Positions 47 to 43,566 of a stretch of DNA of 64,000 nucleotides are shown here, piece by piece. The notes beneath the pieces were generated by a model. The model did not search any database and had not been told where the DNA came from. It saw nothing but the letters and a program-made list of their open reading frames with translations. The position numbers and the translations under genes are program-made. The stretch's first letter is position 1. Each line of letters opens with the position of its first letter. The stretch is taken from the IMG/VR virus record IMGVR_UViG_3300009509_000001, positions 64,001 to 128,000 of that record. One strand, written 5' to 3'. Source of the DNA: a virus.

Positions 47-373
47 TCATTCGGCACGGGTCGTGTCCTCCGGTTGAATATATTTGAAACTTATGGTTCT
101 TAAAAGTATCTTCCAGGTCTCGAGCCTGGGGACCCACTGCTTTTCTTCGAACGAGATGTGGGTCCAGCCCTTGGCTACCTCGTCGATTATCCGGTTATAA
201 GCCTTTATGTCTTCGGCATCGCTCATGACGAACACCTGCAGTTTCGTCGTGTGCACCCGACGCGGCCGCATACGTGGCGGATCGTCGTTCTTCAGATTAA
301 GTGCCGGCCCTTCGTAGGGCAGCCCTTCGTACATCCCGCGAATGTACGTCATTCCTGGTTCTGGTGTACTCAT
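47..373 (-). CDS. Hypothetical protein, virion-module neighbour
   Basis: 108-aa ORF; ATGA overlap with upstream gene. Confidence 0.7.
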   Translation of the reverse strand: MSTPEPGMTYIRGMYEGLPYEGPALNLKNDDPPRMRPRRVHTTKLQVFVMSDAEDIKAYNRIIDEVAKGWTHISFEEKQWVPRLETWKILLRTISFKYIQPEDTTRAE

Positions 374-696
374 ACAAACATATCGCGCCGGCGCGATTCA
401 TCCTGCTGTTGTCTCTTTCGTTCGATCAGCTTGCGTTTCAACGCCTGCATCTGACGCTGGCGCAGTGCGAGCTGTTCCCGCACGGTCGCGTCGACGACGC
501 GTTCCTGCAAAGCTTCCTTGTCGCTGTCGGTCGGAGAACTCATCTTCGACGCCAGATAGCCGAACGCCGCACCGCCGACGAGCGGGACGCCGACCAGGTA
601 AGGTCCGATACTGCCGAGGCCCTCGCCGATGCCTTCGATGGCGTCGCCCCAGCCGAACTTGGCTTTCTTATGCATGAAAGTGGTGAACTTGTCCAT
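370..696 (-). CDS. Putative virion protein (KxA leader, Gly-rich hydrophobic segment, coiled coil)
   Basis: MDKFTTFMHKKA leader; GVPLVGGAAFGYLA; AGGAG RBS. Confidence 0.65.
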   Translation of the reverse strand: MDKFTTFMHKKAKFGWGDAIEGIGEGLGSIGPYLVGVPLVGGAAFGYLASKMSSPTDSDKEALQERVVDATVREQLALRQRQMQALKRKLIERKRQQQDESRRRDMFV

Positions 697-705
697 GTGC
701 TTCTC

Positions 706-1560
706 CTATGAAATTAAACCGGTCGTACGCAATGCTCCGGCCAGTCCGCCGGTTACGCTGGCAATGCGCGTAACGTCCTTCGGCAATGCGAAAATGTTTC
801 CAAGCGCGTAGGCCGTCACGGCGGCACCTGCAAATCCGAGGCCCGCCCGGATCGCGCCGTTGGTCAGGTCAGCCATGCTGGTGTTCCCGCTGCGTCTGTC
901 CGAGCTCGTATTGTCGAATATGGTGCCGATAGCGGCCTTCTGACCACTGGTCAGGAATCTGTCGTTGGCCACGATCTCTTTGGCGTGATCCAGCGGTATG
1001 ACATCCATGGACATCACCGCCTGATTGCTCGCATCGCCCATACCACCTAACATAGCCGTTTTTTGAATAGGTTTCAACGCTGCAGTCTTCTGCCGATCCC
1101 GATCCATGTAGTTCCAACGGGTCATACTCTTCCACGGATGCTTAGTGTCCAGATTGCTGGCCACGCTCAGCCCGCCGGCTCCAAGAGCTGCGATGAGCGC
1201 CAACCGCCTGCGGAACTTCGAGATCTCCTCGTCGGTGACCGGCTGTGCGCCCATCCCGGGGACCATCTGTGCTCCACGGCCCATGAGCCGCGCTATGATC
1301 GGCGCAGCCAGATAAGCACCGCCACCAGCAACCGTAGCTGCGGCCAAGGCGCTTCCCGCCGGGTTTACCGTGTACTTTTTCCACTTCTTGTACGGAACCG
1401 TCCAGTCGGCATTGCTGAGAATGTTGCCGCCACTGGAGGCGCCGGCGCTTGCGTCGTATTCCTTACTGGGGCCGGCGTCGCGACTCTTCAGGTCGGTCGT
1501 CGGTCCTTTGGGCTTCTGTGCCAGCGGGACTTTCTTATCTTTTTTAACGGTTACTGCCAT
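706..1560 (-). CDS. Putative virion protein with Gly-rich hydrophobic segments and internal KTA motifs
   Basis: Start moved to ATG 1560 (after upstream stop at 1563); RQKTAALKPIQKTAM; several GxxxG segments. Confidence 0.65.
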   Translation of the reverse strand: MAVTVKKDKKVPLAQKPKGPTTDLKSRDAGPSKEYDASAGASSGGNILSNADWTVPYKKWKKYTVNPAGSALAAATVAGGGAYLAAPIIARLMGRGAQMVPGMGAQPVTDEEISKFRRRLALIAALGAGGLSVASNLDTKHPWKSMTRWNYMDRDRQKTAALKPIQKTAMLGGMGDASNQAVMSMDVIPLDHAKEIVANDRFLTSGQKAAIGTIFDNTSSDRRSGNTSMADLTNGAIRAGLGFAGAAVTAYALGNIFALPKDVTRIASVTGGLAGALRTTGLIS

Positions 1561-1562
1561 GG

Positions 1563-2363
1563 TCACACCCGCATATTGTTCATGAAGTTGGTGAATGCAC
1601 TGCCGCGCTGTGGCTGCGGCCGTCTGAAATTCCTGTTCGCCGCCCACCAGTTGGGGTTCTGCGGGTTCTGCTGTGCCTGGGCCTGCTGCTGCGGTTTGTC
1701 TCCGCCGAACAGACCTCCGGCCAGGAGCAGACCGCCGGCGCCGATCGCCAGCTTGCCCCAGTTGCCCTTCATCCAGTCGCCGATCTTTTTGTTGCGCTCG
1801 GTCTTATACTTGTCGTAGGCTCCCTTGGTGCCTGACATGAAGCCCTGGTTGAACTGCTTGGACACTTCCAGATCCGGATCAATGGCTTTACTGGGCTGCG
1901 CCGGCTGCGCCCCATCGTTCATGCCGAACATGCCCTTGACCATCTGTTTGCCTCTTTCGGCGGCGTCCACCACAGTGTTCACCGCAGGGGCTGCCGTAGT
2001 CGCCATCCGGTATTTCGGATCGCTCTCGGACATGATGCGCCGGTCTTCCGGGCTGAACTGTATCCGACGTTGCTCGGGCGTTAGCGTGCGCAGATAGTTT
2101 CCGTAGGATTCGATCTCCTGAGCGCGTCCACCGCCGGTAAGCCCTTCCCACACGCCCTTGCCCTGGACGTATCCGGTTACAAGTTTGCGTCCGGCCGCTG
2201 CACCTATCTGGTTCGCTTCTGCCGGGGTCTTGCCGGCCTTCAGCGCCGCCGCTCTGGCTCGCACGGTAGCGCTCGCCGCCTGCTGCCGCAGGGCGTTCAT
2301 GCGCTTGATCTGCTCGGGCGACATGCCCTGGGCCGTTTTCAGCAATGCTTCTTTAAGATGCAC
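1563..2363 (-). CDS. Putative virion protein (KTA leader)
   Basis: MHLKEALLKTAQ; GKLAIGAGGLLLAGGLFG. Confidence 0.7.
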   Translation of the reverse strand: MHLKEALLKTAQGMSPEQIKRMNALRQQAASATVRARAAALKAGKTPAEANQIGAAAGRKLVTGYVQGKGVWEGLTGGGRAQEIESYGNYLRTLTPEQRRIQFSPEDRRIMSESDPKYRMATTAAPAVNTVVDAAERGKQMVKGMFGMNDGAQPAQPSKAIDPDLEVSKQFNQGFMSGTKGAYDKYKTERNKKIGDWMKGNWGKLAIGAGGLLLAGGLFGGDKPQQQAQAQQNPQNPNWWAANRNFRRPQPQRGSAFTNFMNNMRV

Positions 2364-2375
2364 GGGACGCTCTAG

Positions 2376-3830
2376 TTAAAGGGTTGGTTTTTTCTTGACC
2401 AGCGGCGGTTGCCCGGCGACCACCTGTTTGGGTTCTTCCGGCTTCTTGGTCTTCGACAAAATCTGTTCAGCGCCGCTTAGGAGTTGCGGGTTCGTCTCAC
2501 CGCTGGCCGCCCGCTTGGCGTCCTGCCGCGCCTTGAACCGCTGCCCGGGCGTCAGCTCGGTATCCGTCGAAGCCACCGCAGGTGTCGCGGGTGTCACCGG
2601 CTTCTCGGCAGTCGGGGCATTCCTGCGCGCCTGAACGAGCTGCTGGTGCTGCTGCATGGTAAGTGGTGACAGTCCGGCGCCTTGGCGCTGCTTGTTGGCT
2701 TCCGCCAACGTGCTTTCAGTCGGATAAACCACTCTTCCACCGACGTTCATGCTGCCGGCAATGGCTTCTTGATTTATCTTTGACGCTTTGTCCCATGTCG
2801 ATGCGTCAGCAGGCCCGAAAATCTTCGCCCCGCCGGCATTCACATGCTCCTGGAACTGTGCGTCGGTCATATTGCTGTCGGCGAGCTCCTTCGGCATCAT
2901 GTAAATGTTGCCCTGAAATTCGACCGGCCGATCGTTGGCGCTCGGCTGATATGCGTCGGTGGTAGCGGCTGCGGCCTGCTCGGGCTTCTGCACGGTCTCG
3001 GGCTGCTTCGTCATGGCGGCCTCCACCTCGGGGTTCAGCATGGACGTGCGCTTAGCTTCTTCAGCCACTGCTTCGCCCTTTTTAAGCTCCTCGGCTTGCT
3101 GCCTGGCTGCGCGCTCGGCCCGTGCACGCTCTACGTCGGCGCGGGAAATGGGTGGGGTGGACGCGATGGTTTCCGCTGCCACGGGCGGTTTCGCGGTCTG
3201 CCCCGTAGTCTGAACGGCATCGGTACCCTTCGTGACGTCGTCGGCCTGCGGCTCGTTCTGGACGCGTTCCTGCGTAGTTCCCGGGTTTTTGATGGTGGTG
3301 TTGATATGGTCCTGCATGACGGCCCGGTCTTCTTCGCTGGCACCGGGGACAGCCGTATCAATGGCACTGTCCATCGCGGTCTCCATGTCCTTCGGCAACC
3401 AGCCGAACTCACGAGCGGCGTACATGCCGAGCCCCGCGATAAGTCCACCGATAGCAGCACCCTTGGCTCCGCCGAAGGCTCCACCGACCAGTGCGCCGAT
3501 AATGGCGCCGCCGACGCCGGCACCGACAGTGTATCGATTGATCTTGGCACCACCAAGAGCCTCGCGCATACCGCCTTCCAGCGCGGTCTTCGCCCACTCG
3601 GCCTTTATGGCCGCCTGCTCCTCGGGAGTCTTGTCCTTCAGCTTTTCGCCGATCTCCCGGTCGTGCTTGGCCTTCCAGTATTCGCCGGTCTTCAGCGGGT
3701 TCAGGGCGTCCTCCGGATTCTGCAGGGGCTTCTCCAGCCACTGGTTGAACTGCTGCCCGATGTCCCCTGGTTCGGCCGTCTTACGAAGCCCTTCACGGGC
3801 CGCTCTCAAATCTGCTTTGGTGACGCTCAT
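2376..3830 (-). CDS. Putative virion/ejection protein (KTA leader, glycine zipper)
   Basis: GLRKTAEP; GAGVGGAIIGALVGGAFGGAKGAAIGGLIAGLG; long Ala/Gln/Pro-rich C-terminus. Confidence 0.7.
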   Translation of the reverse strand: MSVTKADLRAAREGLRKTAEPGDIGQQFNQWLEKPLQNPEDALNPLKTGEYWKAKHDREIGEKLKDKTPEEQAAIKAEWAKTALEGGMREALGGAKINRYTVGAGVGGAIIGALVGGAFGGAKGAAIGGLIAGLGMYAAREFGWLPKDMETAMDSAIDTAVPGASEEDRAVMQDHINTTIKNPGTTQERVQNEPQADDVTKGTDAVQTTGQTAKPPVAAETIASTPPISRADVERARAERAARQQAEELKKGEAVAEEAKRTSMLNPEVEAAMTKQPETVQKPEQAAAATTDAYQPSANDRPVEFQGNIYMMPKELADSNMTDAQFQEHVNAGGAKIFGPADASTWDKASKINQEAIAGSMNVGGRVVYPTESTLAEANKQRQGAGLSPLTMQQHQQLVQARRNAPTAEKPVTPATPAVASTDTELTPGQRFKARQDAKRAASGETNPQLLSGAEQILSKTKKPEEPKQVVAGQPPLVKKKPTL

Positions 3831-3839
3831 GATCGACTC

Positions 3840-4322
3840 CTAGTTTGAACCCGGAGCGCTTAGCATCCAGTTGGTGTCCATAGCCTGCTGCTTGGCTTCG
3901 GCCACGCGTTGATCGTTCATATCGCGAACCTCGTTCTGAAGCTGGTTCGCCTTGATGAATTCCTTCTGGGCCTTGGCCACGTTCTGGGCCGCCTTGCCCT
4001 TCTGCTGGAGCCGTGCGGCCGCTTCGTTGGTCTGCTCGGTCTGCTGCTCGAACGCCTGCTTTTCCTTTTCCTGCTGCGCCATCTGCGCCTGCTGAGCCTG
4101 CATCTGGTTCGAGCGCTGGGACATGTTCATGGGAGTGGCCGACGGCATCGGTGCGGCCTGGGCCGGCATGGTACTCGCTGCAGCGCCCATCGACGGGTTC
4201 TGCGGCATGGTTGCCGGGGCGGAAGGCGCCTGTGCGGCGGATTGTGGTTGCTGCACGGCAGCTAGTTTACGCAACGCCGCTACACCTACGGCGGCTTCCA
4301 ATTTAGGGTCGAGCATGGTCAA
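3840..4322 (-). CDS. Putative virion protein, Q/A-rich coiled coil
   Basis: AGGAGG RBS; ALRKLAA leader. Confidence 0.7.
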   Translation of the reverse strand: MTMLDPKLEAAVGVAALRKLAAVQQPQSAAQAPSAPATMPQNPSMGAAASTMPAQAAPMPSATPMNMSQRSNQMQAQQAQMAQQEKEKQAFEQQTEQTNEAAARLQQKGKAAQNVAKAQKEFIKANQLQNEVRDMNDQRVAEAKQQAMDTNWMLSAPGSN

Positions 4323-4364
4323 GCCTCCTGAATTTTTTCATAAATATTACTATATCACCGGGAG

Positions 4365-6224
4365 CTACATCATGCCACCCTGGGCCTTTGCCTGGGTGAG
4401 TGCTTGCGACTGCACTCCCTGCTCCATTTTCTGCAATTCCTCTTTGACGAGTGCGCTCATGGTCGGGTCCGTCTTGTTCAGGTTCGCGAGCTGACTCTGA
4501 CGGTCAGGTGCAGAGAATACCTGCTGCGCGAATGCGGCCGCATCGGCCTGCATCTGATCCAGTGTCGGTGGTCCGCCACCGCCAACCGGCATTCCGGGTG
4601 CGGGCGCTCCGCCGGCCGCAGGCATTACGCCGCCGGCCGCTGGTGGTGCCGCTTCGCCCTGCGGAAGCCCCATGTTGGCCTGCGCCGCGTTCGGCGGGAT
4701 CTGCCCGGGTGGCGCCATCTGGACGTATTCGTCCAGCATCTGGGCCTTGGACTCCTTGGCGTTCTCTTCGCGTGCGTCGTCGGCCATTTGGCGACGTTCC
4801 TCCTTGAGGCGCTCGCGCTCGATCTCCGGATCGATGTGGAAAGCTTTGAGGGCCGTGGTCTGCGAGACGACGCCGGCGCTGGCCAGATTCAATTTGACCT
4901 GCTTGGTGACGTCGTCTTCCGCGATCGACACATAGACCAGGCGGCCGTGAATCTCTTTCCAGCCGATCTGTTCGCTGCAGGCTTCGAGATACCAGTTTAT
5001 CCAGGTCGAGATCGGATCGGTGAAATGGCTCCAGCTGCGTTCGAAGGCTCTGAGGCCGATCGGTGGTCCGTTGACGGAAGCGAAGCTGCTGCGGTAGAAT
5101 TCGGTGGCCACGCCCATCGTGGTCAAAAGCTGGTCGTATCGGCGCTCGATCTGCTCGGCCGGGGTGATGCTCTGGCCTTCACCGCCGGCGATGTTGTAAT
5201 CGACGGGGGCCGGCAGCGTGTGCCAGCCGGTCGGATCGCTCTTGTGACGGCTGATCATGGCCTTCACGTTGCCCATGAAGTTCTGCATGCCGAAAGTCTG
5301 CAGCGGGTCGACGCCACCCTTGGTGGTGGCTGGCGTCAGATAACGGAGCGGGACGATCCAGTCGCTGGCGATGGCTTCGTCGAAACGCTCGAGCATCTGA
5401 AGCTGCACGACCTGACTGAAACAGCTCATGAACAGGGGTATTCCCCACCCGTCGTTAAGCCTGAATCCGCCTGCGGCCGGTTCGATCGAAAGGTGCTTGA
5501 AGGTCTCCGGGTCGAACCGAAGTCGTGTGCGGTCCTTGACAGCCTCGATGAACTCCCATGGAATGGAGCATAGCGACAAGTGGTCGCCCTTCTGGATCTT
5601 GCCGGCGCTTCGGCCGTCGATCCGCAGATAGAACTCGCGGCGGCCGCTCAGGCGGCAGAAATCGATCTCGACGTCGCGTGGGTCCCAGCGGATGACGACG
5701 AGCCCGCTCTTGTGGCTCTTGTCCTGTGAATCCTTGCGCTTATGTGCGCCGTGAAAGCCGCACGCTGGACAGGTGGACAGAAATTCATAGCCGGCCGACC
5801 ATTTGTAGTCGATGTCGGGCTTGAGTTTTTCGAGCACGCGGGTCATTCCGCACTCCGGACACTGGATGGACCGGTTGATGGGAAGCGTCAGACTGGTAAA
5901 GCTGTTGCCGAACCCGATAAGGTCGTCACCGACCAGACCGGCGTTCTCCAGGATGTTGAAGTCGCGATGGAGCTGGAGCGTGTAGTCCTTCCGCTCCGCG
6001 ACGCTCAGGTCCTCCCCATAGATCTCGAGTTCGTTCAGGAAATATCGAATGGACCGTTTGATGGCCATCGTATAGACGCCGTGACGATTCCACAGCCATT
6101 CCGCCCACTGAAGGACCTCGTCCATCGTGCGCGGGTATATGAGATTGGCGTAGGTTCTAAACGGATTCGCTACGCCCGTTGAGTCCAGGTCCCTTTTGTC
6201 GTATGGATTCAGCTCTATTGGCAT
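4365..6224 (-). CDS. Probable portal protein with Zn-ribbon insertion
   Basis: 619 aa; portal-like DDLIGFGNSF segment, IRWDPRDV, helical core, AGVVSQTTAL crown segment, P/Q/G-rich tail; CPEC and CPAC pair; AGGAG RBS. Confidence 0.6.
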   Translation of the reverse strand: MPIELNPYDKRDLDSTGVANPFRTYANLIYPRTMDEVLQWAEWLWNRHGVYTMAIKRSIRYFLNELEIYGEDLSVAERKDYTLQLHRDFNILENAGLVGDDLIGFGNSFTSLTLPINRSIQCPECGMTRVLEKLKPDIDYKWSAGYEFLSTCPACGFHGAHKRKDSQDKSHKSGLVVIRWDPRDVEIDFCRLSGRREFYLRIDGRSAGKIQKGDHLSLCSIPWEFIEAVKDRTRLRFDPETFKHLSIEPAAGGFRLNDGWGIPLFMSCFSQVVQLQMLERFDEAIASDWIVPLRYLTPATTKGGVDPLQTFGMQNFMGNVKAMISRHKSDPTGWHTLPAPVDYNIAGGEGQSITPAEQIERRYDQLLTTMGVATEFYRSSFASVNGPPIGLRAFERSWSHFTDPISTWINWYLEACSEQIGWKEIHGRLVYVSIAEDDVTKQVKLNLASAGVVSQTTALKAFHIDPEIERERLKEERRQMADDAREENAKESKAQMLDEYVQMAPPGQIPPNAAQANMGLPQGEAAPPAAGGVMPAAGGAPAPGMPVGGGGPPTLDQMQADAAAFAQQVFSAPDRQSQLANLNKTDPTMSALVKEELQKMEQGVQSQALTQAKAQGGMM

Positions 6225-7169: not shown

Positions 7170-7216
7170 GAGGGGGTCCTCCGTGTTAATGGTAATTTCC
7201 AGGAGATCCTGGAAAT

Positions 7217-33202: not shown

Positions 33203-35119
33203 CTATTCGTACGTCGTGACGTCGGGGGCGGCCGGCGGCAGGCCCTGCTGCTTGCGGCGCTCGTTGAGTTTACGCTGCATGGCCTGCATCTTCTGGATGC
33301 TCAGCTGCTCTTCCCGTCGGTTCTCTTCGATGGCGCCGCTTACGTCCGTGTACAGGCCGGGTATGTCACTCGGCCCGAACTTCGGGTTGCTAATGGCGCC
33401 GACGAACGCCGGGTTGTTCACGAAGTCGCCCTGGAACCGCTCGCCGAGCATGCCGCCCACGCCCTTGCGGATACGCTCCGGGTCGCCGGCCGCATCGCGC
33501 TTGATCTTGGCGATGTCCCACAAAGCCTTGTTGATCTGTTCGCGGGAGAGCTGCTCGCGGAACTCCGGCTTTATCGGCAACAGGTCCAGGTTGCGCATGG
33601 TCTTCTCGAGACTCGGGTGATCGCCGTACGAGCCGGCCTTGCCCTTGCTGAGATCCAGGGACGGTGCCGGTGTCTTGTGCTTGGCATAGGCCAGGGCCGC
33701 GGCCGCTCCGCCCAGGCCGAGGCTTGCAAGCCCCCAGCCCAACCGGTTCTCGGGACTGTTCATGGCCTTGATCGCCGAGTAGGCGCTGCCGGCACCGGCC
33801 AGACCCGCGCCGATCTCGTACTTGTAATCCTTGGCGTTCTCCCACATGGCCTTGCCGGCCTTCTTCCAGTCGAAGGCGCTGGTCTTGCGCAGGTCCTTCA
33901 CGTTCTGGTCGGCCATGGCCTTGCGCTTCTTCAGGCTCTTGAGCAGCATGCGGTCGGACTCAGCCGTGTCGGGCTTGCCGGCGAACCGCTTGTTCATGGC
34001 ATGAAGCAGGTACGGCAGTGCCGCGCCGCCCAGGCCGCCAAGCGTGCTCCACAGCAGCTTGTTCTTGTCGGCCGTCAGCCAGCCGAGGCTCGATCCCAGC
34101 GTGCCGCCCACCAGGCCGGCAACCACCGGGTTGAAATTGTATTTGTCGCTCTTGGCCTGCTCGTCGCGCACCAGCTTGGCGTCCTCGAAAGCGGCCAGCT
34201 TGTCGTTGATGTCCATCTGTGCGGCAAGGGCCGCATCGGTCTGGGCACTCCTGCCGCTCTTGTCGGCTTTGCCCACCATCATCTTGTCGGCGACGTACGC
34301 CGATCCCATCGGTACGGCGCCGGCCACTGCGGTCTTGGCCGCCCGTGCCATCGGACGCTGCCGGCCCGCATAGGCCCTGGGCGCCGATCCGAGCGGTCCC
34401 TCGACGCGTTTGCCGACGGCGCTCATGGCGCTTCGTGGCGTAAGCGGGATCTCACGGCCGAGCGTCGGATGGTCCTTGATGTATTTCTTGGCCTTCTTGC
34501 CGCCGAGCAGGTACATGAGGGCGGCGCTGCTGACGCCTGCGGTGGCGCCCATCTGTGCCGTCTCCTTCTGCATGTTGATGCCGAACAGTGGATCGTCCGG
34601 GTAGTCGACCTTGCCGACCGTGGCCTTCTTGTCGCCGTAATGGGCCTGCGCCCCGACGTGCGGCTCTTTGCCGCCGAGTATCAGCTCGACGTTCCCGCCG
34701 ACGGTCTCGCCGCTCGGTTCGATCTTAACCGGGTTGTACTCTCCGACGGTGCGGGCCACGTCGCCGACCTTGCGCTTGACGCTCTCGGGTAGAACGGTGC
34801 TCAACCCTTCCTTGACGCCCTTGATGCCCCTGAGCGTGTCGACCAGTGGCGGCAACGCCGTGTCGATCACCTTGCCGGTGAAATCCTTGTCGCGTCCCGC
34901 CGCTTCGTCGATCTTCGCCTGCTCTTCCGGCGTGCGCTGGCTGCGGCCGTACATCGACAGCATGACCGCCGGTGTGCCCAGCCGCAGGGCTGTGCTGCCC
35001 ATGGCCTTGGGCGCCGCCTTCATGCGGAGAACCGCCGCCTTGCGCTTCCAGGGGTTGGTGAAGAGGGTGCCTTTGCCGGCCGCCGTCTTCTGTATCGGTT
35101 TGTCGAGCAGACGTCCCAT
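33203..35119 (-). CDS. Putative virion protein (KTA leader, multiple Gly zippers)
   Basis: MGRLLDKPIQKTAA; several GxxxG hydrophobic pairs. Confidence 0.8.
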   Translation of the reverse strand: MGRLLDKPIQKTAAGKGTLFTNPWKRKAAVLRMKAAPKAMGSTALRLGTPAVMLSMYGRSQRTPEEQAKIDEAAGRDKDFTGKVIDTALPPLVDTLRGIKGVKEGLSTVLPESVKRKVGDVARTVGEYNPVKIEPSGETVGGNVELILGGKEPHVGAQAHYGDKKATVGKVDYPDDPLFGINMQKETAQMGATAGVSSAALMYLLGGKKAKKYIKDHPTLGREIPLTPRSAMSAVGKRVEGPLGSAPRAYAGRQRPMARAAKTAVAGAVPMGSAYVADKMMVGKADKSGRSAQTDAALAAQMDINDKLAAFEDAKLVRDEQAKSDKYNFNPVVAGLVGGTLGSSLGWLTADKNKLLWSTLGGLGGAALPYLLHAMNKRFAGKPDTAESDRMLLKSLKKRKAMADQNVKDLRKTSAFDWKKAGKAMWENAKDYKYEIGAGLAGAGSAYSAIKAMNSPENRLGWGLASLGLGGAAAALAYAKHKTPAPSLDLSKGKAGSYGDHPSLEKTMRNLDLLPIKPEFREQLSREQINKALWDIAKIKRDAAGDPERIRKGVGGMLGERFQGDFVNNPAFVGAISNPKFGPSDIPGLYTDVSGAIEENRREEQLSIQKMQAMQRKLNERRKQQGLPPAAPDVTTYE

Positions 35120-35122
35120 GGG

Positions 35123-35875
35123 TTATGCCTTCTTCTTCTCGCGTTCCTTGATGTACTTGGCGAGCAATGCCGCCAGTCCGGCACCGGTCAATGCACCGCC
35201 GGCCGCGCCGATGAGGCCGCTGCCCATGCGGTTGCCCAGCGCGTATCCGCCGATGCCGCCGGCCAGGGCGCCGGCCGCTCCTGCCTGGAGCTCCTGATTG
35301 TTCTTGATCTCTTCGAGCAGTTCCTGCCATACGCTGGTGCGCGGGGCCGCCGTGCTGTGGGTCGTGTCCTTGGGCGGGTTGTAGTCGCTTACCATCCCGG
35401 TGGGACTCAGCTTCTCGCCGACCTTCTTGCCGACCGCTGCGGTGCCCAGCGTGCTTCCGGCCAGAATGGCCTTTCCTTTCTTGGTCTTGGCCAGTTCGCT
35501 TACTTCCGGACTCTTGGTGGCTTTGCCGTAGACACTGCCGGCCTTGGTGGCCTTGGGGACCGTGCCGCCGCTCGGAGCCGTAATAGTGGAACCGGCCTGC
35601 CCCGCCTGGCGGCCATAGTTGAAGTCGCTGACGATCTCGCCGGGACGGCGGGCCGCACCCTTCAGTGCGTCGACCGGCTTCTTCGTCTTGTCGAGGAGGC
35701 CGCCGACCAGATTCCTGATCGGGGTCCGCTTCGGCGGCATGGTCGCATCCATCAATTCGCCGAGCGAAGGCTTCTTCGCCTGCTTGTGTAGCTGTGCGGT
35801 CTTGGCCATCGGTTCATTGAAGCCGAAGGCCGTACGGAGTTCGCTCATCCGCTGGGGTGATACTGCATGTGTCAT
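35123..35875 (-). CDS. Putative virion protein (KTA/KQA, C-terminal glycine zipper)
   Basis: PMAKTAQLHKQAKK; AGAAGALAGGIGG...GAGLAALL. Confidence 0.8.
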   Translation of the reverse strand: MTHAVSPQRMSELRTAFGFNEPMAKTAQLHKQAKKPSLGELMDATMPPKRTPIRNLVGGLLDKTKKPVDALKGAARRPGEIVSDFNYGRQAGQAGSTITAPSGGTVPKATKAGSVYGKATKSPEVSELAKTKKGKAILAGSTLGTAAVGKKVGEKLSPTGMVSDYNPPKDTTHSTAAPRTSVWQELLEEIKNNQELQAGAAGALAGGIGGYALGNRMGSGLIGAAGGALTGAGLAALLAKYIKEREKKKA

Positions 35876-35891
35876 AGTGTGCTCCTGTATA

Positions 35892-37868
35892 CTATTTAGG
35901 TGTCATGGCGTTCATCTCGTCGTACCAGCTCTGGTTGGAAGCCGCCTGTCGGGCCTTCTCGGCCTGGTTGCGCAGCCTTGCGGCCCGCACGATCTCCTGG
36001 ATGCGTTCACCGAGGCTGGTGTCGGCACTCATGCTCTCGGCCCACTTGTTGCCGGCGGTCAGCTCGCCAAGCGTGTTGACGCTCTCGACGCCGCCGCGGA
36101 GTACGTTGCCGAACACCGGCACGCCCTCGCTGAAGTTTCGAACGAACCCGGTCGCACCGCCCCTCTTGCTGGTCTGCCGAAGGATGTCGCCGATCTCCGA
36201 CGGTTTGAGGGCCTCGGCCTCGAGCTTCGCACGGGCCATAAGGTCCTTGTACTCGGCATACACAGCGTCTCGTTCGTACCCGCTCATTTCATCAAAGTTC
36301 TTGCCTTCCGCGCCCACCATGCGCTTGGCGTGATGGGTGAGCAGATGGTGCGCCCTCCCGACGTCGCGCTTGGACTTCAGGGCTGCCACCGCCTTGTAGA
36401 AATCGTTCAGCTGCACCCGCTGCTCGAGCGGGCTTCCCTTGGTCGCCAGCGCATGGCCATAGGACAGTCCGATGCGCGCCGGGTTGTAGACCTGCATGGT
36501 CGTGCCAAGCGTGCCGAGTCCCATGACCTTCAATGCGTCGTTGCGCTTCTGGTTCCACTCGTCGTCCGTCATCTCGCCGGCCTGGTACTTCTTGAAATCG
36601 TCTTCCAGCATCGCTGCGGCTTCGGGTATGGCCTCCGCCATCTGCCGGGCGTTCTGCAGCTCGACCGGCGCCTTCTGCTCCAGATTGGATACGGCGGCAT
36701 TGAGCATCTTGTCGCCCTGACGGCCACGGTCGCCCTGCGTGACAAGGTTGGCAAAGTCCTCGAGCTCGATGGTCTTCTCGCCGGTCTTGGGATCGGTGGC
36801 CAGCATCTGGTAGGATTCCACGATGTTGTCGGCGATCTCAATGGGTATAAGGAGCTTGCCGGCCAGTTTCTCGGCACCGGGGCGCATCGCCGTGGGGCCG
36901 AAGCGTGCGGCCAGGTTGACGGGCAGCCCCAGCTGTCCGGCGATGATACCGGCCCGGTTCTCGGGATCGCTGGTCATCTGCGACCATAGATTGCTGACCT
37001 TCTCCACCGGCCCGCCGGCGCTTCCGCTTATGGGAATGCCCTCGGGAGTCGTCGTATAGGTTCCGTAGTCCTTCCAGCCGTGAGTGCCTTCCTTGCCCTC
37101 GACGATGTCGGCCATGGCATTGGTGATCCGGTTCGGGTGCATCGGGCTTATCTCGCCACTGCCGACCATACTGAAAATGGATCGCTCCGCCCGCTGGATG
37201 TCCTGGGGCGTCGGGATCTTGCCGGTCTTGTACTTGTGGACCACGGCGTAGTCGGTGAGCAGCTGGCGGCGCAGTTCGGGCGGCAGGCTGACGGTGGCAC
37301 CGCTGCCGACCGTGCCCTTGGCTTCGTAGGGCGCCACCTTCATGATGTCGCGCAAGGCCCCGCTCACTTCCTGAACGTCCTCGGGCTTCATCGTTTCGAA
37401 CTTGAGGTTCTCGTAGAGCGGCGCGTCCTCCTGCTGGAGCTGCTTGACGTCGGCCTGGTACTGGGCCTCGTCCTGCTTCTGAATGATGTCGCCCCGCTTG
37501 ACCCGCCGCTGCGGCTTGCCGGTACGGGGATCGATCGGAGTCGGCGGGGCCGCAACCTGTGGCTGCTGTGGCGTCGGCGGCTGTCCTGGCGTCGGCGGCG
37601 GCTGCGGCGTCGGCGGCGGTTTCGGGGAAGCCGCGCTTGTCGGCGGCTGTTTGCCGAAGCCCTGGCTCAGCGTGTTCTTGAACCGGTCGACCATCTTCGG
37701 GTCGTCCCATGCCTGGTAGCCCAGACCGGCTGCGGCGCCGAGCAGTGTGCCAGCACCGCTTACGCGGCCACGCAACGCCCATTCACCGAGGGTACCGGCT
37801 CCTGCGCCGATGCCGCCGGCGATCAACGCCTTTACCAGGTCGTCGCCTTTAAGTCGTGGTTTCGCCAA
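35892..37868 (-). CDS. Large putative virion/ejection protein
   Basis: TTG start after GGGAGG RBS; N-terminal Gly zipper, Pro-rich linker, helical body. Confidence 0.75.
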   Translation of the reverse strand: MAKPRLKGDDLVKALIAGGIGAGAGTLGEWALRGRVSGAGTLLGAAAGLGYQAWDDPKMVDRFKNTLSQGFGKQPPTSAASPKPPPTPQPPPTPGQPPTPQQPQVAAPPTPIDPRTGKPQRRVKRGDIIQKQDEAQYQADVKQLQQEDAPLYENLKFETMKPEDVQEVSGALRDIMKVAPYEAKGTVGSGATVSLPPELRRQLLTDYAVVHKYKTGKIPTPQDIQRAERSIFSMVGSGEISPMHPNRITNAMADIVEGKEGTHGWKDYGTYTTTPEGIPISGSAGGPVEKVSNLWSQMTSDPENRAGIIAGQLGLPVNLAARFGPTAMRPGAEKLAGKLLIPIEIADNIVESYQMLATDPKTGEKTIELEDFANLVTQGDRGRQGDKMLNAAVSNLEQKAPVELQNARQMAEAIPEAAAMLEDDFKKYQAGEMTDDEWNQKRNDALKVMGLGTLGTTMQVYNPARIGLSYGHALATKGSPLEQRVQLNDFYKAVAALKSKRDVGRAHHLLTHHAKRMVGAEGKNFDEMSGYERDAVYAEYKDLMARAKLEAEALKPSEIGDILRQTSKRGGATGFVRNFSEGVPVFGNVLRGGVESVNTLGELTAGNKWAESMSADTSLGERIQEIVRAARLRNQAEKARQAASNQSWYDEMNAMTPK

Positions 37869-38898
37869 CTGTTCCTCCCTTGCCGATGTTCCATTCACGG
37901 CCGTAGGTGCTGCCGAGGCCCGCACCGGCCAATGCACCGCCGCCACCGCCGAGCAGTATGCCCAGCATGTAATCGGCCGCATCGGGGTTGGTTTTCATAA
38001 GTTTGGTGATGAGCATGCCCAAGCCGGCTCCGAGGGGTACGCCGGCCGCAGCGCCGACAAGGCCCTTGCTGCCGCGGTCAACCTTCTCGTTCAAAGCCTT
38101 CAGATGTTCGCCGACTTCGCCAACGCTCTTCTTGGTGGAACCCAGGTCCTCGCGGATCTGCTGGGTGCCTTCCTGGATGTCGCCCTTGACCCACGCCTCC
38201 TTGCGCATCATCTCGATCGTGTGGTCGATCAGCTCGAACATATTTCCAGGAACTCCTGGATTTGCGGTCTTCTCGATGCTGGCGTTCGGGGTCTTGCCAC
38301 GCTTGGCGAACGGCGTGGTGCCGACGCCCTGGTCGGCGTCCATGACCTGGAAGCTGTGGGGGTTCGATCCCTCGGTCTTCGAGTTACGGATCTTCTCGGC
38401 GAGCTGGCCGCGTGCATGCTTGCGGCAGGCGGCGGCCTTGATGACCCCGGCGACCTTGTGCATGACCCGCTGCTTGACGCCGGGCTCGTACTCGGCGTTC
38501 TTGATCAGATGCTCGGCGAGTAAACCGGTGCCGGCGGTCTTCTTCAGACTCGGGTACTTGGCGTGGACCTTGGCCCGGACCTGTGCCTTCTCTTCGTCGG
38601 TGCCGTGCATGCCCACCAGGCGAAGGGCGGAGCGTGCATGCTCGATGTCGTGTATCGGGTAGTTGCCGCTCTTCTTCTTTTCCTTGGCGTTCTCAGCCTT
38701 TCCGGGGATGGCGAAATTCTTCGTGGCGATGTGGCTGCGCTGCTTGGCCTTGAGGGTCGCTGACTTCTTGTGGCCCTTCTTCTTCTGCTTGTTGGCGGTG
38801 GCGTAGAAGATCTGTTCGCCCTTCTTGTCGCCGTACTGCTTCTTCATCTGGGCCATGACCTCTTCGCCCTTGCCGTCGTAGTATTTGGATAGTGGCAT
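37849..38898 (-). CDS. Putative virion protein with small basic domains and C-terminal Gly zipper
   Basis: MKKQYGDKKGEQIFYA, YPIHDIEHARSAL, LKKTAG, IEKTAN. Confidence 0.8.
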   Translation of the reverse strand: MPLSKYYDGKGEEVMAQMKKQYGDKKGEQIFYATANKQKKKGHKKSATLKAKQRSHIATKNFAIPGKAENAKEKKKSGNYPIHDIEHARSALRLVGMHGTDEEKAQVRAKVHAKYPSLKKTAGTGLLAEHLIKNAEYEPGVKQRVMHKVAGVIKAAACRKHARGQLAEKIRNSKTEGSNPHSFQVMDADQGVGTTPFAKRGKTPNASIEKTANPGVPGNMFELIDHTIEMMRKEAWVKGDIQEGTQQIREDLGSTKKSVGEVGEHLKALNEKVDRGSKGLVGAAAGVPLGAGLGMLITKLMKTNPDAADYMLGILLGGGGGALAGAGLGSTYGREWNIGKGGTVGETTT

Positions 38899-38909
38899 GT
38901 GTGCCCTCC

Positions 38910-39233
38910 TTAACGGGGTATGCGCCGTTGCACCAGCTCCTGCCGGGGCTTGAAGTCACGGTCCACGTAACCGCCCCGATTGTAGCTGGCTTTGCTGACG
39001 TTCATCGGCTGCTTGCTGGCCACGTTGGCTGGGTCGATCGGTGCACCCTTGATCTCGCGGCTTCCGGTCGGGCTCTGGCCACGCTTCATCCGTGCCAGGT
39101 TCTGTTGACGGAGCTTCTCGGCTGCCGCCTTCTTCGCTTGGGCCGCCCGCTGCATCTCCATCATCTGTTGCCGGGCGGCGGCGTTGCGATCGAAAGCCGT
39201 CTTGCGGATCAACGCGTCTTTGAGATGTCCCAT
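38910..39233 (-). CDS. Small basic putative virion protein (KTA leader)
   Basis: MGHLKDALIRKTAF; AGGAGG RBS. Confidence 0.8.
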   Translation of the reverse strand: MGHLKDALIRKTAFDRNAAARQQMMEMQRAAQAKKAAAEKLRQQNLARMKRGQSPTGSREIKGAPIDPANVASKQPMNVSKASYNRGGYVDRDFKPRQELVQRRIPR

Positions 39234-39242
39234 GGTCGCCTC

Positions 39243-40517
39243 CTACTTCTTAGTGGCGTCGTACTTGTGCTGGGCCACGATGGCCTTGCGGGCACCAGGG
39301 CTCACGCGGCCTTTGAAGTTGACGTTCGGGTACTTCTTCTTGGCGGCCTTCAGGCCCATGTTCTCGGCCTTGGTCTCAGCCTGCTCGACCTTCAGGTTCT
39401 TGCGGCCGGCCGCGGCGTCCGTCTGTTCACCGACGGCGACTGCGGCCTGCTTCGTGAGCAGGGCTGCCACCAGGTCGTTGACGACTTCATGCTTGACGCT
39501 TGCGGCCTTGCTGAGGTCTGCCCGCTCGTTGGCACGGGGCCTGGCCGGCGGGAACGTGCTCGGTGTCAATGACGGGGCGCCCAGTCCCGGCTTGGGCGGA
39601 TACTTCTTGCGGATCATCTCGTAAATCTTGCGCTTTTTGCTCTCCGGGCTTTCCTGCACGGCGCTTGGCTGAGTGGCGCCCGGCATTCCCAGCGGGGCGA
39701 TGGGCTTGGGCATCGTCTGTACGCCGGCGGCGACTCCGCCTGCGTTGCCGCCCTGCCGCACGGATTCTAAAATGCCTTTGCCGATTCTGCTGAGATTTCC
39801 GGATCTGGCAGTTTTACGGATAAGTGCTTCAGTTAACAGTCCCATTGGTGTGTCTCCTTGTTGTTCTGCGGTCTTCGGCAGCTGGCGGCCTTCGCTCATC
39901 TGCTGTGCAAGTATCTTCCAGTCTTCGGGCGTCATGGTTTCGCGCCGTGCCATCCAGCGGCCGAGGGCGCTGCCCATACCGGTACCGAGTGCGGCACCGC
40001 CCAGTCCACCGGCCACTCCGCCGATTGCGGCGGCGGTACCCTTGGCGTCGTCACTGGCCTTGTTGAACAGGGCGAGCATGATCGCCGCACCCATGCCGGC
40101 GCCGGTGGCTCCGCCGACCAGACCGCCGCTTGCGCCGCCCAGTCCCTGGAGTGCAGCGGACTCGAGCCGGCTGCTGCCACGGGCGGGTCGGGCCAAACCA
40201 TGAGCGGCACCACCCACGAACGGGATGGTCTGGATCAAATCTGTCTTGTCGTCGAAGGCGGCGGCTTTCATGATCACCGGGCCACCCTTCTCGTTGGCGG
40301 CGTCAAGCGCTGCCTGAGCCTGGGACTTCAGCTTCTCGGCCTCAAGTTCCTTGGAATGCGTGTCGACGTACCACTGGGCAGTGCGCCGCACATGCTCCGG
40401 CGTATTCGGATCGTCGAGTACGGCCTGGGCCTTTTCGATCTCGGCGGCCTTGTCGACCTTGAACATATCCATGAGTCCGGCAGTCTTGCGGACGAGGGCA
40501 TTTGCGAGTAGCGGCAT
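39243..40517 (-). CDS. Putative virion protein; in-frame tandem of two KTA-leader units (second ATG at 39845)
   Basis: MPLLANALVRKTAG and internal AAGGAG-RBS MGLLTEALIRKTAR. Confidence 0.75.
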   Translation of the reverse strand: MPLLANALVRKTAGLMDMFKVDKAAEIEKAQAVLDDPNTPEHVRRTAQWYVDTHSKELEAEKLKSQAQAALDAANEKGGPVIMKAAAFDDKTDLIQTIPFVGGAAHGLARPARGSSRLESAALQGLGGASGGLVGGATGAGMGAAIMLALFNKASDDAKGTAAAIGGVAGGLGGAALGTGMGSALGRWMARRETMTPEDWKILAQQMSEGRQLPKTAEQQGDTPMGLLTEALIRKTARSGNLSRIGKGILESVRQGGNAGGVAAGVQTMPKPIAPLGMPGATQPSAVQESPESKKRKIYEMIRKKYPPKPGLGAPSLTPSTFPPARPRANERADLSKAASVKHEVVNDLVAALLTKQAAVAVGEQTDAAAGRKNLKVEQAETKAENMGLKAAKKKYPNVNFKGRVSPGARKAIVAQHKYDATKK

Positions 40518-40740
40518 ATCTGGATCTCCTGTATGATTCGGTGTTAGTCGCTTCCTGTTAATATACTCCACCGGTTTCGCGCACGCAAGCAACGACCCCG
40601 GTCTGCGGATGGCACGGCACACGCCTCGTCGGGCAGGCCCCCTTACGGGGCCTCGATGGTTTGCATGCGCTTACACGTTGTCCGTGTGCAATCCGTTGCC
40701 CCGGAGGGGCACCTGTTCGTTCCGGAAAATGTCCTGGATT

Positions 40741-43566
40741 TCATTTGCCGACCGCCCGCTTCACCATGGTCTTGATCTTGCCGGTGTTTTTCGTGACGCC
40801 CTTGGCCTTGTCGTCGTATATGGCGGTGCAATACATGTCCTTGACGCAGGTGATGGGCAGTACCTGGCCAATGTGGGCCATGCACCACTTGTCGATGTGG
40901 TAGCGGGCCTTCCCGTCGTCGCCGCTTGCCCGGGCAGTCAGGATCTTTACCTTCTTGCCGTCGGCGAGCCATGCCTTTACCCGGTCGACCATGGGCTTGA
41001 TCGGTGCGCCGATGTGGCCACGGCCCTTCCATTCGGTATATCGGGCCAGCGTGCCGTCAAGGTCCACGCCGATCCATTCCTTTGCCGGGTCGTATTTGAG
41101 GGCTTTCTTGTGCAGGTCGTATCGTTGTGCGGCCGCCCGCAGCTCTTCCTGCGGTATGCCGACGTTGTGTTCATTGAGCTTGGGCCGTACGGCGTCGGCC
41201 GGTACCCGGAACATACCGCACAGCTCGCGCAGCTTGGCCTCCAGCTGGTCGGCGTCCATCGCCGCGGTCTTCCGCAGCCGTCGACTCAATGCCAGTAAAG
41301 CGGGTGCCGCCAGTGCACCGGTCGCTCCGCCGGCCAAGGCGCCGATAAGCTTGTCGTCGGCGAGCCATGCGCCGGCCGCTCCGCCCAGGCCCAGCCCGGC
41401 CAATGCCGCAGTGCCGTAGCCGCCCGGTGCCTTGGCCTTCGGCTGTTGCGGCTGCGGTTGTGGCCGTGGCGTCTGTGTGACCTGCGGTTCGACGCCTGTT
41501 TCGGGTTCGCCGTTATCGCGCATGAGCAATGCCGTGCCGCCGGCGGTGGCCGCAGTCGCCGCAGTGGCGATCGCCGCCTTCTTGCCGGTCGACATCTTGC
41601 CGGTCGCCGGCGGGTCGGTGATTCTTGCCGTGGGCTTGGCCGGCGGTGGATCGGTGATGCGTGCCGTGGACTTGGCGAAAGGCTCCGGTGCCGGCAGGGG
41701 CTCGAACCACGACCTGTTGTGCGTCGGGTCCGCGTTCCAGTCGTCGCCGTAGCCCATGACCGTTCTTGAATTTACGTTGCGCCCCTTTCCGGTCGCTTCC
41801 TGAAACTTCAGCGCCGTATCCATGTATTCGCCGGCGGCCCGCGAAAGCTTGTCGGAGTCTACGTTGCCCCTGAGCGACGGGTCTTTGCGCAGGCGATCCT
41901 TTATCGCCATGCTGACGTCGTACGGCCCGCGGCCGGACGTGTACGTGTGTCCCGGGTGGACGCGATCGATCAGCTTTTGATGGAGCCGCTGGGCGCGCGG
42001 ACCCTCCAAGTACCGCATCGCGTCCATGTACGGCATTTCGCCGGCCTTCTCGTACATGCGCTTCAGCACGCCGAAAGCGCGGGTCGCGTCCGACTCGAAC
42101 TTGAACGCCGGCGTCTTGGCCGCAGCGGTCTTCGGCAGCAGGTTGCCGACCACCACGAGCCGGTCGCGAAGGCTCGGATTCGCCATGAGCCTGAAATGGG
42201 CGTCCGCCTGCTTCTTCAGCTGCTTGGCCTTGGCGCTGGTGGTCGCCGCCACCGGACCGCCGGCCGGCAACAGCTTCTTGATGCGCAGCGCCAGGAGCTT
42301 GCGGCCGTTGATGGTGGGCTGGCCGTTCTCGTCGGTTCCTATACTTTCAACCTTCACAGGCTTGTTCTTGAATCTGCCTACGAGAACGGTGTCGCCCATC
42401 TCTATGTCGAGCACGATCTTCGCGATCTTGCGCAGCCGCGGGTCGGCCAACCGCTGCTTCAGCCGGATCTCCCGGTCGATCGCCCTGATGTCCATGTGGT
42501 AAGTTTTTATCTCAGCCTGCTTCGCCAGGGGCTTGAGCTCTCCCTTGGTCGGGCCGTCGCTCATGGCCCATTCCTTGAATTCGGCCCACGGCAGTTCGAC
42601 CACGGCGCCGTCGCGGTCCCAGCCGTCCTCGTAGTTCTGCCGGTAGGCTTGCACCGCCTGCTGCTTCGTGACGTAGCCGATCATGCACTTGTGCTCGTCG
42701 AACTTGCCGTCGGCGTCCAGCTGGTTGATCACGTACACGCTCTCGGCGTCCCATATGGTCTCGTCGTGGGGTATGCCCGGATTGATGAAGACGTCGAGAT
42801 GATCCTTGTCGTAGCCCCTGCTGCCGCGGATGTAGCCGTAGTCGTCCCACATGGTCTGGCTCCATTCGTTACCGTCGTCGTCCACTCCGCTCCTGACGGA
42901 CTTGAACGGGTTCTCGATGCTGATGTCCAGGCCGTCGATGGTTACGTGCGCCTTCTTGTAGTTCTCGGCCTTGATCTGGGCCTCGGTCGGCTGTAGCTCC
43001 ATGTCCTGGCCCTTGGCCACCCCATGCTCGACCTCCGCGGCGGTCTTGGCCAGGCGCGGTATGAGCAGCGTACTGTAGCGGTCGGCCGGGTTGCTCCACC
43101 GGATGGCGCTGATCGGAAACTTCTGGCCGCTCACGAAATTGGCGAGCCGTGCGTACTTGGCGGGGTCCACGTCCTTCTTCAGGTAGGCGACGGTGACGTG
43201 CGGCCGGTAGGTCTTGTGCGTTTCGCCCGGCATCCTGACGCCGGCGCGCACCGCCTTGTTCAATGCATGCAGGTCCGGACTGTCGACGTCGAACTTCAGC
43301 ACCTTGTAGTCGCCCTGGTCGAAGTGACTGAGCCCGCCGACGGTACCCTGCCCCTGCAGGATTTCCTTGATCGCCTCCTTCGTGGAGCGCGGGTCGTCTT
43401 CTTCATGCCCGTAGGCAAGCGTGACGTGTGGATGCTTCTCGAGGCCGAACCCGTCCTCGTCGTACAAATCCTCCTTGGCGATGGCGCGCTGGATCATAGC
43501 GATCCGAAGCGCCACGCTCCTGGGCATGTCGATGCCCATCCAACCGTATGATTTTTCTTTAGCCAT
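40741..43566 (-). CDS. Polyvalent protein: 2H phosphoesterase (Acb1-like), InPase-like domain, small beta domain, TM/Gly zipper, HAD phosphatase
   Basis: Two HxT motifs (PHVTL, PHVTV); PTEAQ..AENYKK..ISIENP...YGYI...D.DHLDVF...FDEHK; DLDGT...LTAR...IYDD. Confidence 0.85.
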   Translation of the reverse strand: MAKEKSYGWMGIDMPRSVALRIAMIQRAIAKEDLYDEDGFGLEKHPHVTLAYGHEEDDPRSTKEAIKEILQGQGTVGGLSHFDQGDYKVLKFDVDSPDLHALNKAVRAGVRMPGETHKTYRPHVTVAYLKKDVDPAKYARLANFVSGQKFPISAIRWSNPADRYSTLLIPRLAKTAAEVEHGVAKGQDMELQPTEAQIKAENYKKAHVTIDGLDISIENPFKSVRSGVDDDGNEWSQTMWDDYGYIRGSRGYDKDHLDVFINPGIPHDETIWDAESVYVINQLDADGKFDEHKCMIGYVTKQQAVQAYRQNYEDGWDRDGAVVELPWAEFKEWAMSDGPTKGELKPLAKQAEIKTYHMDIRAIDREIRLKQRLADPRLRKIAKIVLDIEMGDTVLVGRFKNKPVKVESIGTDENGQPTINGRKLLALRIKKLLPAGGPVAATTSAKAKQLKKQADAHFRLMANPSLRDRLVVVGNLLPKTAAAKTPAFKFESDATRAFGVLKRMYEKAGEMPYMDAMRYLEGPRAQRLHQKLIDRVHPGHTYTSGRGPYDVSMAIKDRLRKDPSLRGNVDSDKLSRAAGEYMDTALKFQEATGKGRNVNSRTVMGYGDDWNADPTHNRSWFEPLPAPEPFAKSTARITDPPPAKPTARITDPPATGKMSTGKKAAIATAATAATAGGTALLMRDNGEPETGVEPQVTQTPRPQPQPQQPKAKAPGGYGTAALAGLGLGGAAGAWLADDKLIGALAGGATGALAAPALLALSRRLRKTAAMDADQLEAKLRELCGMFRVPADAVRPKLNEHNVGIPQEELRAAAQRYDLHKKALKYDPAKEWIGVDLDGTLARYTEWKGRGHIGAPIKPMVDRVKAWLADGKKVKILTARASGDDGKARYHIDKWCMAHIGQVLPITCVKDMYCTAIYDDKAKGVTKNTGKIKTMVKRAVGK

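Follow-up and report, generated by a model that had tools for sequence, protein, structure and literature searches.

We analysed a 64,000-nucleotide stretch of phage DNA (hereafter the window), which comprises bases 64001–128000 of a single 194,576-bp virus record (IMG/VR record IMGVR_UViG_3300009509_000001), and found that a short protein motif, best written h-x-K-x-A (where h is L, I, M, V or F), recurs in the products of two gene blocks of this genome. The motif is usually followed by Ser, Ala or Glu and then by an acidic residue. Its copies are placed as the cleavage sites of phage T4 and of phiKZ/SPN3US are (in scaffold-like proteins, a capsid propeptide, a protease linker and N-terminal leaders). 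We consider it likely, with a probability of about 0.7, that h-x-K-x-A is recognised and cut by the head-maturation protease that the phage itself encodes. The motif is carried by the capsid protein, the scaffold-like proteins and about a dozen probable packaged cargo proteins. Cleavage itself, the scissile bond, targeting to the capsid and the virion location of the proteins of the second block are points that we infer.

The record has direct terminal repeats and is rated complete. Its G+C content is ∼60% and nearly all genes lie on the minus strand. There is no DNA-level similarity to any cultured phage, and a megablast search of the second block against cultured phages gave no match. The nearest cultured phages, judged by their portal and protease proteins (26–34% identity), are Salmonella phage Arash and Vibrio phages D69, D181 and D148; the portal protein is 26–29% identical to the portals of Arash and D69. 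The first block spans genome positions 25383–68316, mostly 46244–68316, which is the head operon and whose last third is window positions 1–6224. The second block lies at window positions 33203–43497. Coordinates below are those of the window unless given as genome positions.

The motif is enriched in two gene blocks

Expected counts were obtained from shuffles of each protein, which preserve its composition, using 239 genes called over the whole genome. The tripeptide KTA was observed 39 times (17.4 ± 3.6 expected), with 11 copies in the first 30 residues of a protein (1.9 ± 1.2 expected). The pattern h-[RKQYHL]-K-[TQNKLS]-A was observed 35 times (8.2 ± 2.8 expected), with 16 copies in the first 30 residues (1.0 ± 1.0 expected), and 32 of the 35 fell within the two blocks. 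The simpler h-x-K-x-A occurred 78 times in the blocks where 24.6 copies were expected (ratio 3.18, z 11.7) and was at background level elsewhere. It was present within the first 40 residues of 18 of the 27 block proteins, compared with 8 of the 212 others (Fisher p 1e-14).

The five-residue and h-x-K-x-A patterns had been shaped on the data, and we therefore complemented them with an unbiased scan that covered 1,600 residue pairs with gaps of 0–3. In the blocks, K.A came third (z 5.1) and L.K was also high; over the rest of the genome K.A was only at rank 358 (z 0.9). As a positive control, the same pair statistic applied to T4 gp67, gp68, gp21 and gp22 recovered the known gp21 motif, with I.E in first place and L.E in second. 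Head and cargo genes carried up to 2.3 copies of h-x-K-x-A per 100 residues, while the tail genes (genes 20–39 of the gene list) had four copies in ∼8,000 residues. The T4-type motif [LI]-x-E and the phiKZ-type motif [SAG]-x-E were not enriched in the blocks, with ratios of 1.15 and 0.97 as against 3.18. The observation is real and strongly non-random.

An earlier note on this DNA had described a family of K-x-A leaders, concentrated by eye in two virion blocks, as a system for capsid targeting and protease processing. The concentration holds up, as does an excess over what composition predicts. The note had taken L-x-x-x-[LI]-x-R-K-T-A as the conserved core and had confined the motif to cargo proteins. 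These two points have to be given up: the true core is the shorter h-x-K-x-A, the longer leader being genome-specific, and the motif is also found on the capsid protein, scaffold-like proteins and the protease. What stands of the processing proposal is that the statistics and placement of the motif, and the predicted fold of the protease, are those expected of a head-maturation protease and its recognition site.

Such an enrichment might arise as a by-product, from scaffold-type proteins whose amphipathic or coiled-coil helices are rich in Lys and Ala, combined with duplicated 5′ gene ends. A, K and E are abundant in the block proteins, predicted helices contain some of the copies, and the profile of the protease family has a weak match to designed coiled coils with L-K-K-I-A. 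However, the shuffles allow for the composition of each protein, and chemically similar patterns were not enriched: h-x-R-x-A, h-x-E-x-A, h-x-Q-x-A, h-x-K-x-S, h-x-K-x-G and the reversed motif gave ratios of 0.5–1.3, and the further substitutions K to D, A to L and A to E likewise abolished the enrichment (0.5–1.3, compared with 3.2 here and 4.5 in relatives). Generic amphipathic-helix bias was rejected on the basis of these variants. The by-product explanation also leaves unexplained why the position of the motif is fixed at the N-termini of proteins with unrelated bodies and why K and A are conserved in orthologues where the neighbouring residues vary, and we regard it as very improbable.

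The motif is conserved in the protease, the capsid protein and scaffold-like proteins

The prohead protease, which the earlier note had named as something to be looked for, is encoded outside the window, at genome positions 49268–50710, ∼13.3 kb upstream of it. An Atlas lead for this protein of 480 amino acids pointed to prohead serine proteases, and its predicted fold is of the T4 gp21 type. The gene order runs from the portal gene to the protease gene and then through genes for a multi-site protein of 348 amino acids and proteins of 132 and 172 amino acids to the capsid gene (genome 46244–47212; phrog_2522). The same order of portal, protease and capsid is seen in relatives and in Arash.

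For the protease, a full scan with phmmer yielded 2273 representative homologues. The AlphaFold2 model, built with a 49-sequence alignment, had a predicted local distance difference test (pLDDT) score of 89. The best structural match of residues 1–229 was T4 gp21 (5jbl_A; Z 10.7, root mean square deviation 3.1 Å, 147 of 165 residues). Herpesvirus proteases gave Z scores of 5.6 (varicella-zoster virus), 4.1 (human cytomegalovirus) and 2.3 (another), with the best unrelated match at 4.4. Foldseek agreed, with a probability of 0.94 and a target-normalised template modelling score of 0.56. The putative catalytic residues H119 and S171 (in F-S-M-G) are invariant among the 49 homologues and H197 is nearly so. 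A distant homologue, gp19 of Bacillus phage G, is annotated as head maturation protease (bioRxiv 10.1101/2024.12.16.628780).

Members of the protease family that are as little as 30% identical still share two copies of the motif, LRKVA-S and L-x-K-L-A, immediately past the catalytic domain; these lie in or beside two stretches that are disordered in the model. Another conserved copy is found at residues 33–37. The capsid protein has IRKQA at residues 24–28, and the motif falls within the first 45 residues of 116 of 120 capsid homologues, in nearly every case at residue 24–25. The proteins flanking the protease carry 6–8 copies here and 7–11 in relatives.

Two further features of the protease family were noted. 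Residues D179, C181, C184, C195 and H197 form a conserved Cys/His cluster (residues 179–197) inserted just past the putative nucleophile Ser171, which from its sequence may be a zinc-binding element; we know of no such insertion in T4 gp21. In addition, many homologues are ∼860 amino acids long (loci L011–L013 and L019–L021, 862–873 amino acids), with an insertion of ∼370 residues near residue 175–180, by the invariant Ser171, that looks like an intein or homing element.

Unrelated proteins share an N-terminal leader

The leaders quoted in the earlier note are all present at minus-strand starts (2363, 3830, 4322/4316, 696, 35119, 35875, 39233, 39845 and 40517), most of them preceded by an AGGAG ribosome-binding site. 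The internal copy that repeats the core of the 35119 leader is likewise present, in gene 706–1563. The 39845 start needs a qualification: its sequence and its own AGGAG exist, but it has no separate open reading frame (ORF) and lies in frame inside ORF 39243–40517/40622. The genes of the head block within the window are as follows, with nucleotide positions of the motif-bearing parts in brackets.

370–696, minus strand: small protein of 108 amino acids with a 12-residue leader (661–696) ending MHKKA, followed by a Gly-rich hydrophobic segment
706–1563, minus strand: head-module protein of 285 amino acids with one internal copy, IQKTA, at residues 166–170 (1054–1068)
1563–2363, minus strand: protein of 266 amino acids with a GTG start and an 11-residue leader (2331–2363) ending LLKTA; belongs to the extended-leader group
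2376–3830, minus strand: head-module protein of 484 amino acids with a 19-residue leader (3774–3830) ending LRKTA and a Gly-rich hydrophobic segment at about residues 85–135
3840–4316, minus strand: protein of 158 amino acids encoded just downstream of the portal gene, with a 19-residue leader (4260–4316) ending LRKLA
4365–6224, minus strand: portal protein of 619 amino acids, first gene of the head operon; weak phrog_2739 match and zero copies of the motif

PHROG and Pfam scans gave no match for most leader-bearing proteins.

A strict regular expression for the long leader of 11–12 residues had exactly five matches in the six frames of the 194,576-bp genome. All five are at starts in the window (2363, 35119, 39233, 39845 and 40517), each 2–3 residues past the start codon. 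The leaders at 39233 and 39845 share 10 of 14 residues, of which seven are specified by different codons. Since synonymous codons differ between leaders, their conservation is at the protein and not the DNA level, and a DNA-level repeat or regulatory element was rejected for the same reason. Four or five proteins have a common 13-residue leader but bodies that cannot be aligned past residues 17–23; paralogy of the leader-bearing proteins was rejected because their similarity ends there. Duplication of the 5′ ends of genes may nevertheless be an alternative source of the shared leaders, although the differing synonymous codons make a recent duplication unlikely.

A comparable arrangement was seen in a complete 185-kb relative whose protease is 40% identical. 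Here, six dissimilar proteins of 120–232 amino acids begin with a different common leader of 15 residues; five of the six leaders end in h-x-K-x-A and the sixth ends in K-x-S, while a reversed-pattern control found none. One of the six genes is ∼20 kb from the head operon. The ending of the leader is thus clade-wide and the remainder genome-specific. By analogy with the T4 capsid-targeting sequence, the genome-specific part fits a tag that is read by a co-evolving partner.

Outside the window and far from the blocks, two more genes encode proteins that look like substrates: one of 216 amino acids with a 13-residue leader ending LTKNA (genome 184210–184860, minus strand) and one of 342 amino acids with seven copies of the motif (genome 186025–187053, plus strand).

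The motif is conserved in uncultured relatives and in phage Arash

Using nine protease sequences, we retrieved 15 related loci, 12 of them distinct, with proteases 29–75% identical. The head modules of these relatives contained 402 copies of the motif (95.8 expected), compared with 21 copies (21.0 expected) in the genes after the capsid gene. K.A ranked second of the 1,600 pairs (z 14.6), behind only the zinc-finger pair C..C, and the signature was present in 10 of the 12 distinct relatives. The residue after the motif alanine was S or A in 43% of sites, with an acidic residue next in 33%.

In the two contigs whose portals are 71–72% identical (L001 and L002), the motif is kept at the N-termini of four orthologous genes while the surrounding residues change. 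The orthologues of 370–696 keep h-x-K-x-A in place with different flanks, those of 1563–2363 keep LRKTA, those of 2376–3830 have IPKEA or IEKTA at the equal position, and those of 3840–4316 keep LRKTA or LRKQA. The signature was also checked in Arash and, less fully, in D69. For Arash gp218–gp226, K.A ranked first and L.K second; the Arash capsid protein has LVKEA at residue 25, and gp220, gp223 and gp225 have 6–9 copies each.

This distribution bears on whether the leaders could be signals for a host factor, that is, for a host protease or for membrane insertion. The Prp/L27-type leader on the capsid and scaffold proteins of Staphylococcus phage 80alpha is a precedent for a host protease, and many of the leader-bearing proteins have Gly-rich hydrophobic segments. 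However, the motif is conserved, together with the phage-encoded protease family, across very different hosts (Salmonella, Vibrio, and sediment and marine metagenomes). It also occurs at conserved positions inside the phage protease, and the leaders are not hydrophobic signal peptides. There is, in our view, little chance that a host factor accounts for the leaders.

The second block encodes motif-bearing orphans and an enzyme polyprotein

The second block contains the following genes.

33203–35119, minus strand: orphan of 638 amino acids, putative head cargo, with a 13-residue leader (35081–35119) ending IQKTA
35123–35875, minus strand: protein of 250 amino acids with two adjacent copies, MAKTA at residue 23 and LHKQA at residue 29 (35777–35875), and a C-terminal Gly-zipper-like segment
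35892–37868, minus strand: orphan of 658 amino acids with an N-terminal Gly-rich hydrophobic segment and one internal copy at residue 175, without an N-terminal leader
37849–38898, minus strand: protein of 349 amino acids with six internal copies (residues 118, 131, 146, 152, 208 and 231) and a Gly-zipper-like segment
38910–39233, minus strand: basic protein of 107 amino acids with a 13-residue extended leader (39195–39233) ending IRKTA, resembling the other leader-bearers over residues 1–17 only
39243–40517, minus strand: ORF of 424 amino acids with seven copies and an N-terminal extended leader (40479–40517)
40741–43566, minus strand: polyvalent enzyme polyprotein of 941 amino acids, with 2H phosphoesterase (residues 43–152), InPase (residues 195–334) and a C-terminal folded domain

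The proteins of 638 and 658 amino acids have no relatives in IMG/VR or among cultured phages. The same searches found no homologues of the 424-amino acid ORF and no stand-alone homologues of its C-terminal half. A second complete in-frame leader (nucleotides 39807–39845), with its own AGGAG upstream, lies in the middle of this ORF, which is either a fusion of two tagged cargo genes or a gene with a nested start.

The polyprotein matched Pfam families PF18823 (4.5e-49) and PF13563 (2.4e-12), and its PHROG matches include DarB-like, minor head protein and virion structural protein families. The head and virion families among these matches, like the motif copies between its domains, hint indirectly that the protein may be packaged in the virion. 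It has eight copies of the motif, with h at residues 172, 347, 378, 450, 477, 764, 818 and 934. In the AlphaFold2 model these sites bracket the confidently folded parts (InPase lies between 172 and 347, and the C-terminal domain between 818 and 934), an arrangement that carries little statistical weight. Homologues of the polyprotein are domain mosaics with GNAT, HD, ligase and SET domains, and they provide a natural control. Close homologues are enriched in the motif (z 1.6–7, 13 of 14 above 2), whereas most of the distant InPase-bearing proteins of other phages are not; on these sequences, therefore, the motif appears to belong to the lineage and not to the domains.

The start of the polyprotein is ambiguous, giving 941, 932 or 918 amino acids; the longest form (start at 43566) has no Shine–Dalgarno sequence and lies behind a TATA-rich stretch.

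Evidence for and against cleavage at the motif

Several findings weigh against the motif being cut by this protease. Neither Pfam S77 (PF03420) nor S78 (PF04586) found anything in the genome at E ≤ 1, and hhalign of the protease family against T4 gp21 gave a probability of 0.2, so that the relationship with gp21 is, as modelled, at the level of the fold only. In several cases the copy is part of the folded protease domain or of a predicted helix and, to judge from the model, is probably not cut. The model of the polyprotein is poor (pLDDT 54.9); segments below pLDDT 50 account for 45% of its length and contain only four of the eight sites. The proteins of block 33203–43566 have no homologues of known location in IMG/VR or among cultured phages. 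Two of the relatives, L015 and L017, show only weak K.A enrichment (z about 3). Finally, the Arash paper and its supplement contain no peptide-level or processing data.

Some of these points can be placed further. Searching the PDB sequences with the protease-family profile gave only chance coiled-coil matches, and because sequence methods fail to link the protease to S77/S78 or to gp21, we describe it, on the evidence of the model, as a distinct family with a gp21/assemblin fold. In L015 and L017, whose proteases are 32–35% identical, the hydrophobic position of the motif is missing, leaving a bare K-x-A, while the proteases keep the two post-catalytic copies; their specificity may be relaxed or shifted.

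The motif might instead be an uncleaved docking peptide, which would bind the scaffold core, the capsid interior, the portal or a chaperone and recruit proteins to the prohead while the protease cuts elsewhere. An extended leader that is common to unrelated proteins within a genome and differs between genomes is what would be expected of a co-evolving binding interface. However, docking does not explain why scaffold-like proteins should have 6–11 copies spread evenly along them, why copies should be conserved in the disordered linker that immediately follows the protease domain, or why there should be copies between the enzyme domains of the polyprotein. In T4, sites with this layout and this statistic are genuinely cleaved (PMC9958956). 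We consider docking without cleavage unlikely.

If h-x-K-x-A is the cleavage motif, the protease would free itself at the conserved sites just after its own catalytic domain, would remove a propeptide of ∼28 residues from the capsid protein and would chop the multi-site scaffold/core proteins into small peptides. Leaders of 9–33 residues would be clipped from the small head proteins and from the proteins of block 33203–43566, and the 941-amino acid polyvalent protein would be cut between its enzyme domains. The genome-specific part of the leader would probably help to load proteins into the prohead, like the T4 capsid-targeting sequence. There are two candidate registers. A hydrophobic residue at P3 and Lys at P1 would give the T4 geometry with the charge reversed; Ala at P1 and Ser or Ala at P1′ would give the herpesvirus geometry, with the cut after Ala as the earlier note had assumed.

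Comparison with known head-maturation systems

The T4 protease gp21 cuts at (Leu/Ile)-x-Glu sites. It breaks gp22, gp67 and gp68 down to peptides, takes 65 residues off gp23 and trims short N-terminal peptides from the internal proteins, of which IPII and IPIII carry a capsid-targeting sequence (PMC9958956). The phage described here resembles T4 in the predicted fold of the protease (Z 10.7), in a protease gene located in the head operon by the scaffold and capsid genes, in site-studded scaffold/core proteins, in an N-terminal capsid propeptide and in short leaders (∼10–20 residues) common to unrelated head proteins. A hydrophobic residue two positions before a charged residue is also common to the two motifs. 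In contrast to T4, the charged residue is Lys instead of Glu and an Ala two positions later is required, the T4 motif is not enriched and there is no sequence-level similarity to gp21. The protease differs in its length of 480 amino acids, with the Cys/His insertion and a long helical C-terminal region. There are also many more leader-bearing proteins, including RNA-polymerase-linked proteins of the head operon and the enzyme polyprotein.

The prohead proteases gp175 of phiKZ and gp245 of SPN3US use (Ser/Ala/Gly)-x-Glu and Ala-x-Glu sites, and those of T4, phiKZ, 201phi2-1 and SPN3US all cut after Glu (PMC5694885, PMC10052503). Similarities to phiKZ and SPN3US are the large genome and a head with many proteins, apparently including a virion RNA polymerase, N-terminal propeptides with several candidate sites, paralogues with identical N-terminal leaders and, as proposed here, a protease that auto-cleaves at its C-terminus. 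The differences are that those enzymes cut after Glu and belong to Pfam S77 by sequence, whereas the motif here is Lys-x-Ala and the family is not recognised by Pfam. A prohead protease motif of the lysine or alanine type did not turn up in literature searches. The Lys-x-Ala system would be a variant of the T4/phiKZ propeptide system.

The maturation and release sites of herpesvirus assemblin are (Val/Leu/Ile)-x-Ala|Ser. The fold is related to that predicted here, Ala is frequently followed by Ser or Ala in the motif, and the consensus in the protease family is LRKVA-S. If Ala is P1, however, P3 here is Lys instead of a hydrophobic residue, and the hydrophobic residue is at P5.

Polyvalent (DarB-like) multi-enzyme proteins of phages and conjugative elements carry an InPase domain (Pfam PF18823). 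The 941-amino acid protein is like them in combining 2H phosphoesterase with InPase and in having mosaic homologues. It differs in that its inter-domain spacers carry the protease motif of the clade, which is missing from distant polyvalent proteins; this placement suggests that it would be cut into separate enzymes inside the head.

A Lys-x-Ala rule in an enzyme with the gp21 fold would widen the known specificity range of an ancient protease lineage shared by phages and herpesviruses. It would also provide a sequence test for head-internal or injected cargo among the orphan proteins of Arash-like phages; such a test is of value since the proteins packaged by these phages appear to include their own RNA polymerase and enzyme polyproteins. 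The prediction can be tested, as Arash (Salmonella host) and Vibrio phages D69, D181 and D148 are cultured and have the same protease family. Like the T4 capsid-targeting sequence, the short leader could be attached to foreign proteins to bring them into capsids.

More tentatively, and at somewhat less than even odds, we propose a two-layer packaging code in a large, mostly uncultured clade of ∼150–205-kb phages, in which clade-wide cleavage at K-x-A is combined with a genome-specific leader of 11–15 residues that acts as a capsid address. With such a code, arbitrary proteins could be loaded, trimmed and injected, among them enzyme polyproteins that are cut into separate enzymes inside the head, and fusions such as 39243–40517 would keep the internal leader as a cut site.

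Glycine-rich segments in leader-bearing proteins

Many of the leader-bearing proteins contain Gly/Ala-rich, glycine-zipper-like hydrophobic segments of 40–60 residues. Such segments are found in the products of the following genes.

Window: 370–696, 2376–3830, 35123–35875, 35892–37868, 37849–38898, 39243–40517 and 40741–43497
Genome: 57238–57942

Together with the motif, these shared segments point to a virion location for the proteins of block 33203–43566. A blastp comparison between two of the segment-containing proteins gave an E value of 5e-7, and the segments may be membrane-inserting hairpins of ejection proteins.

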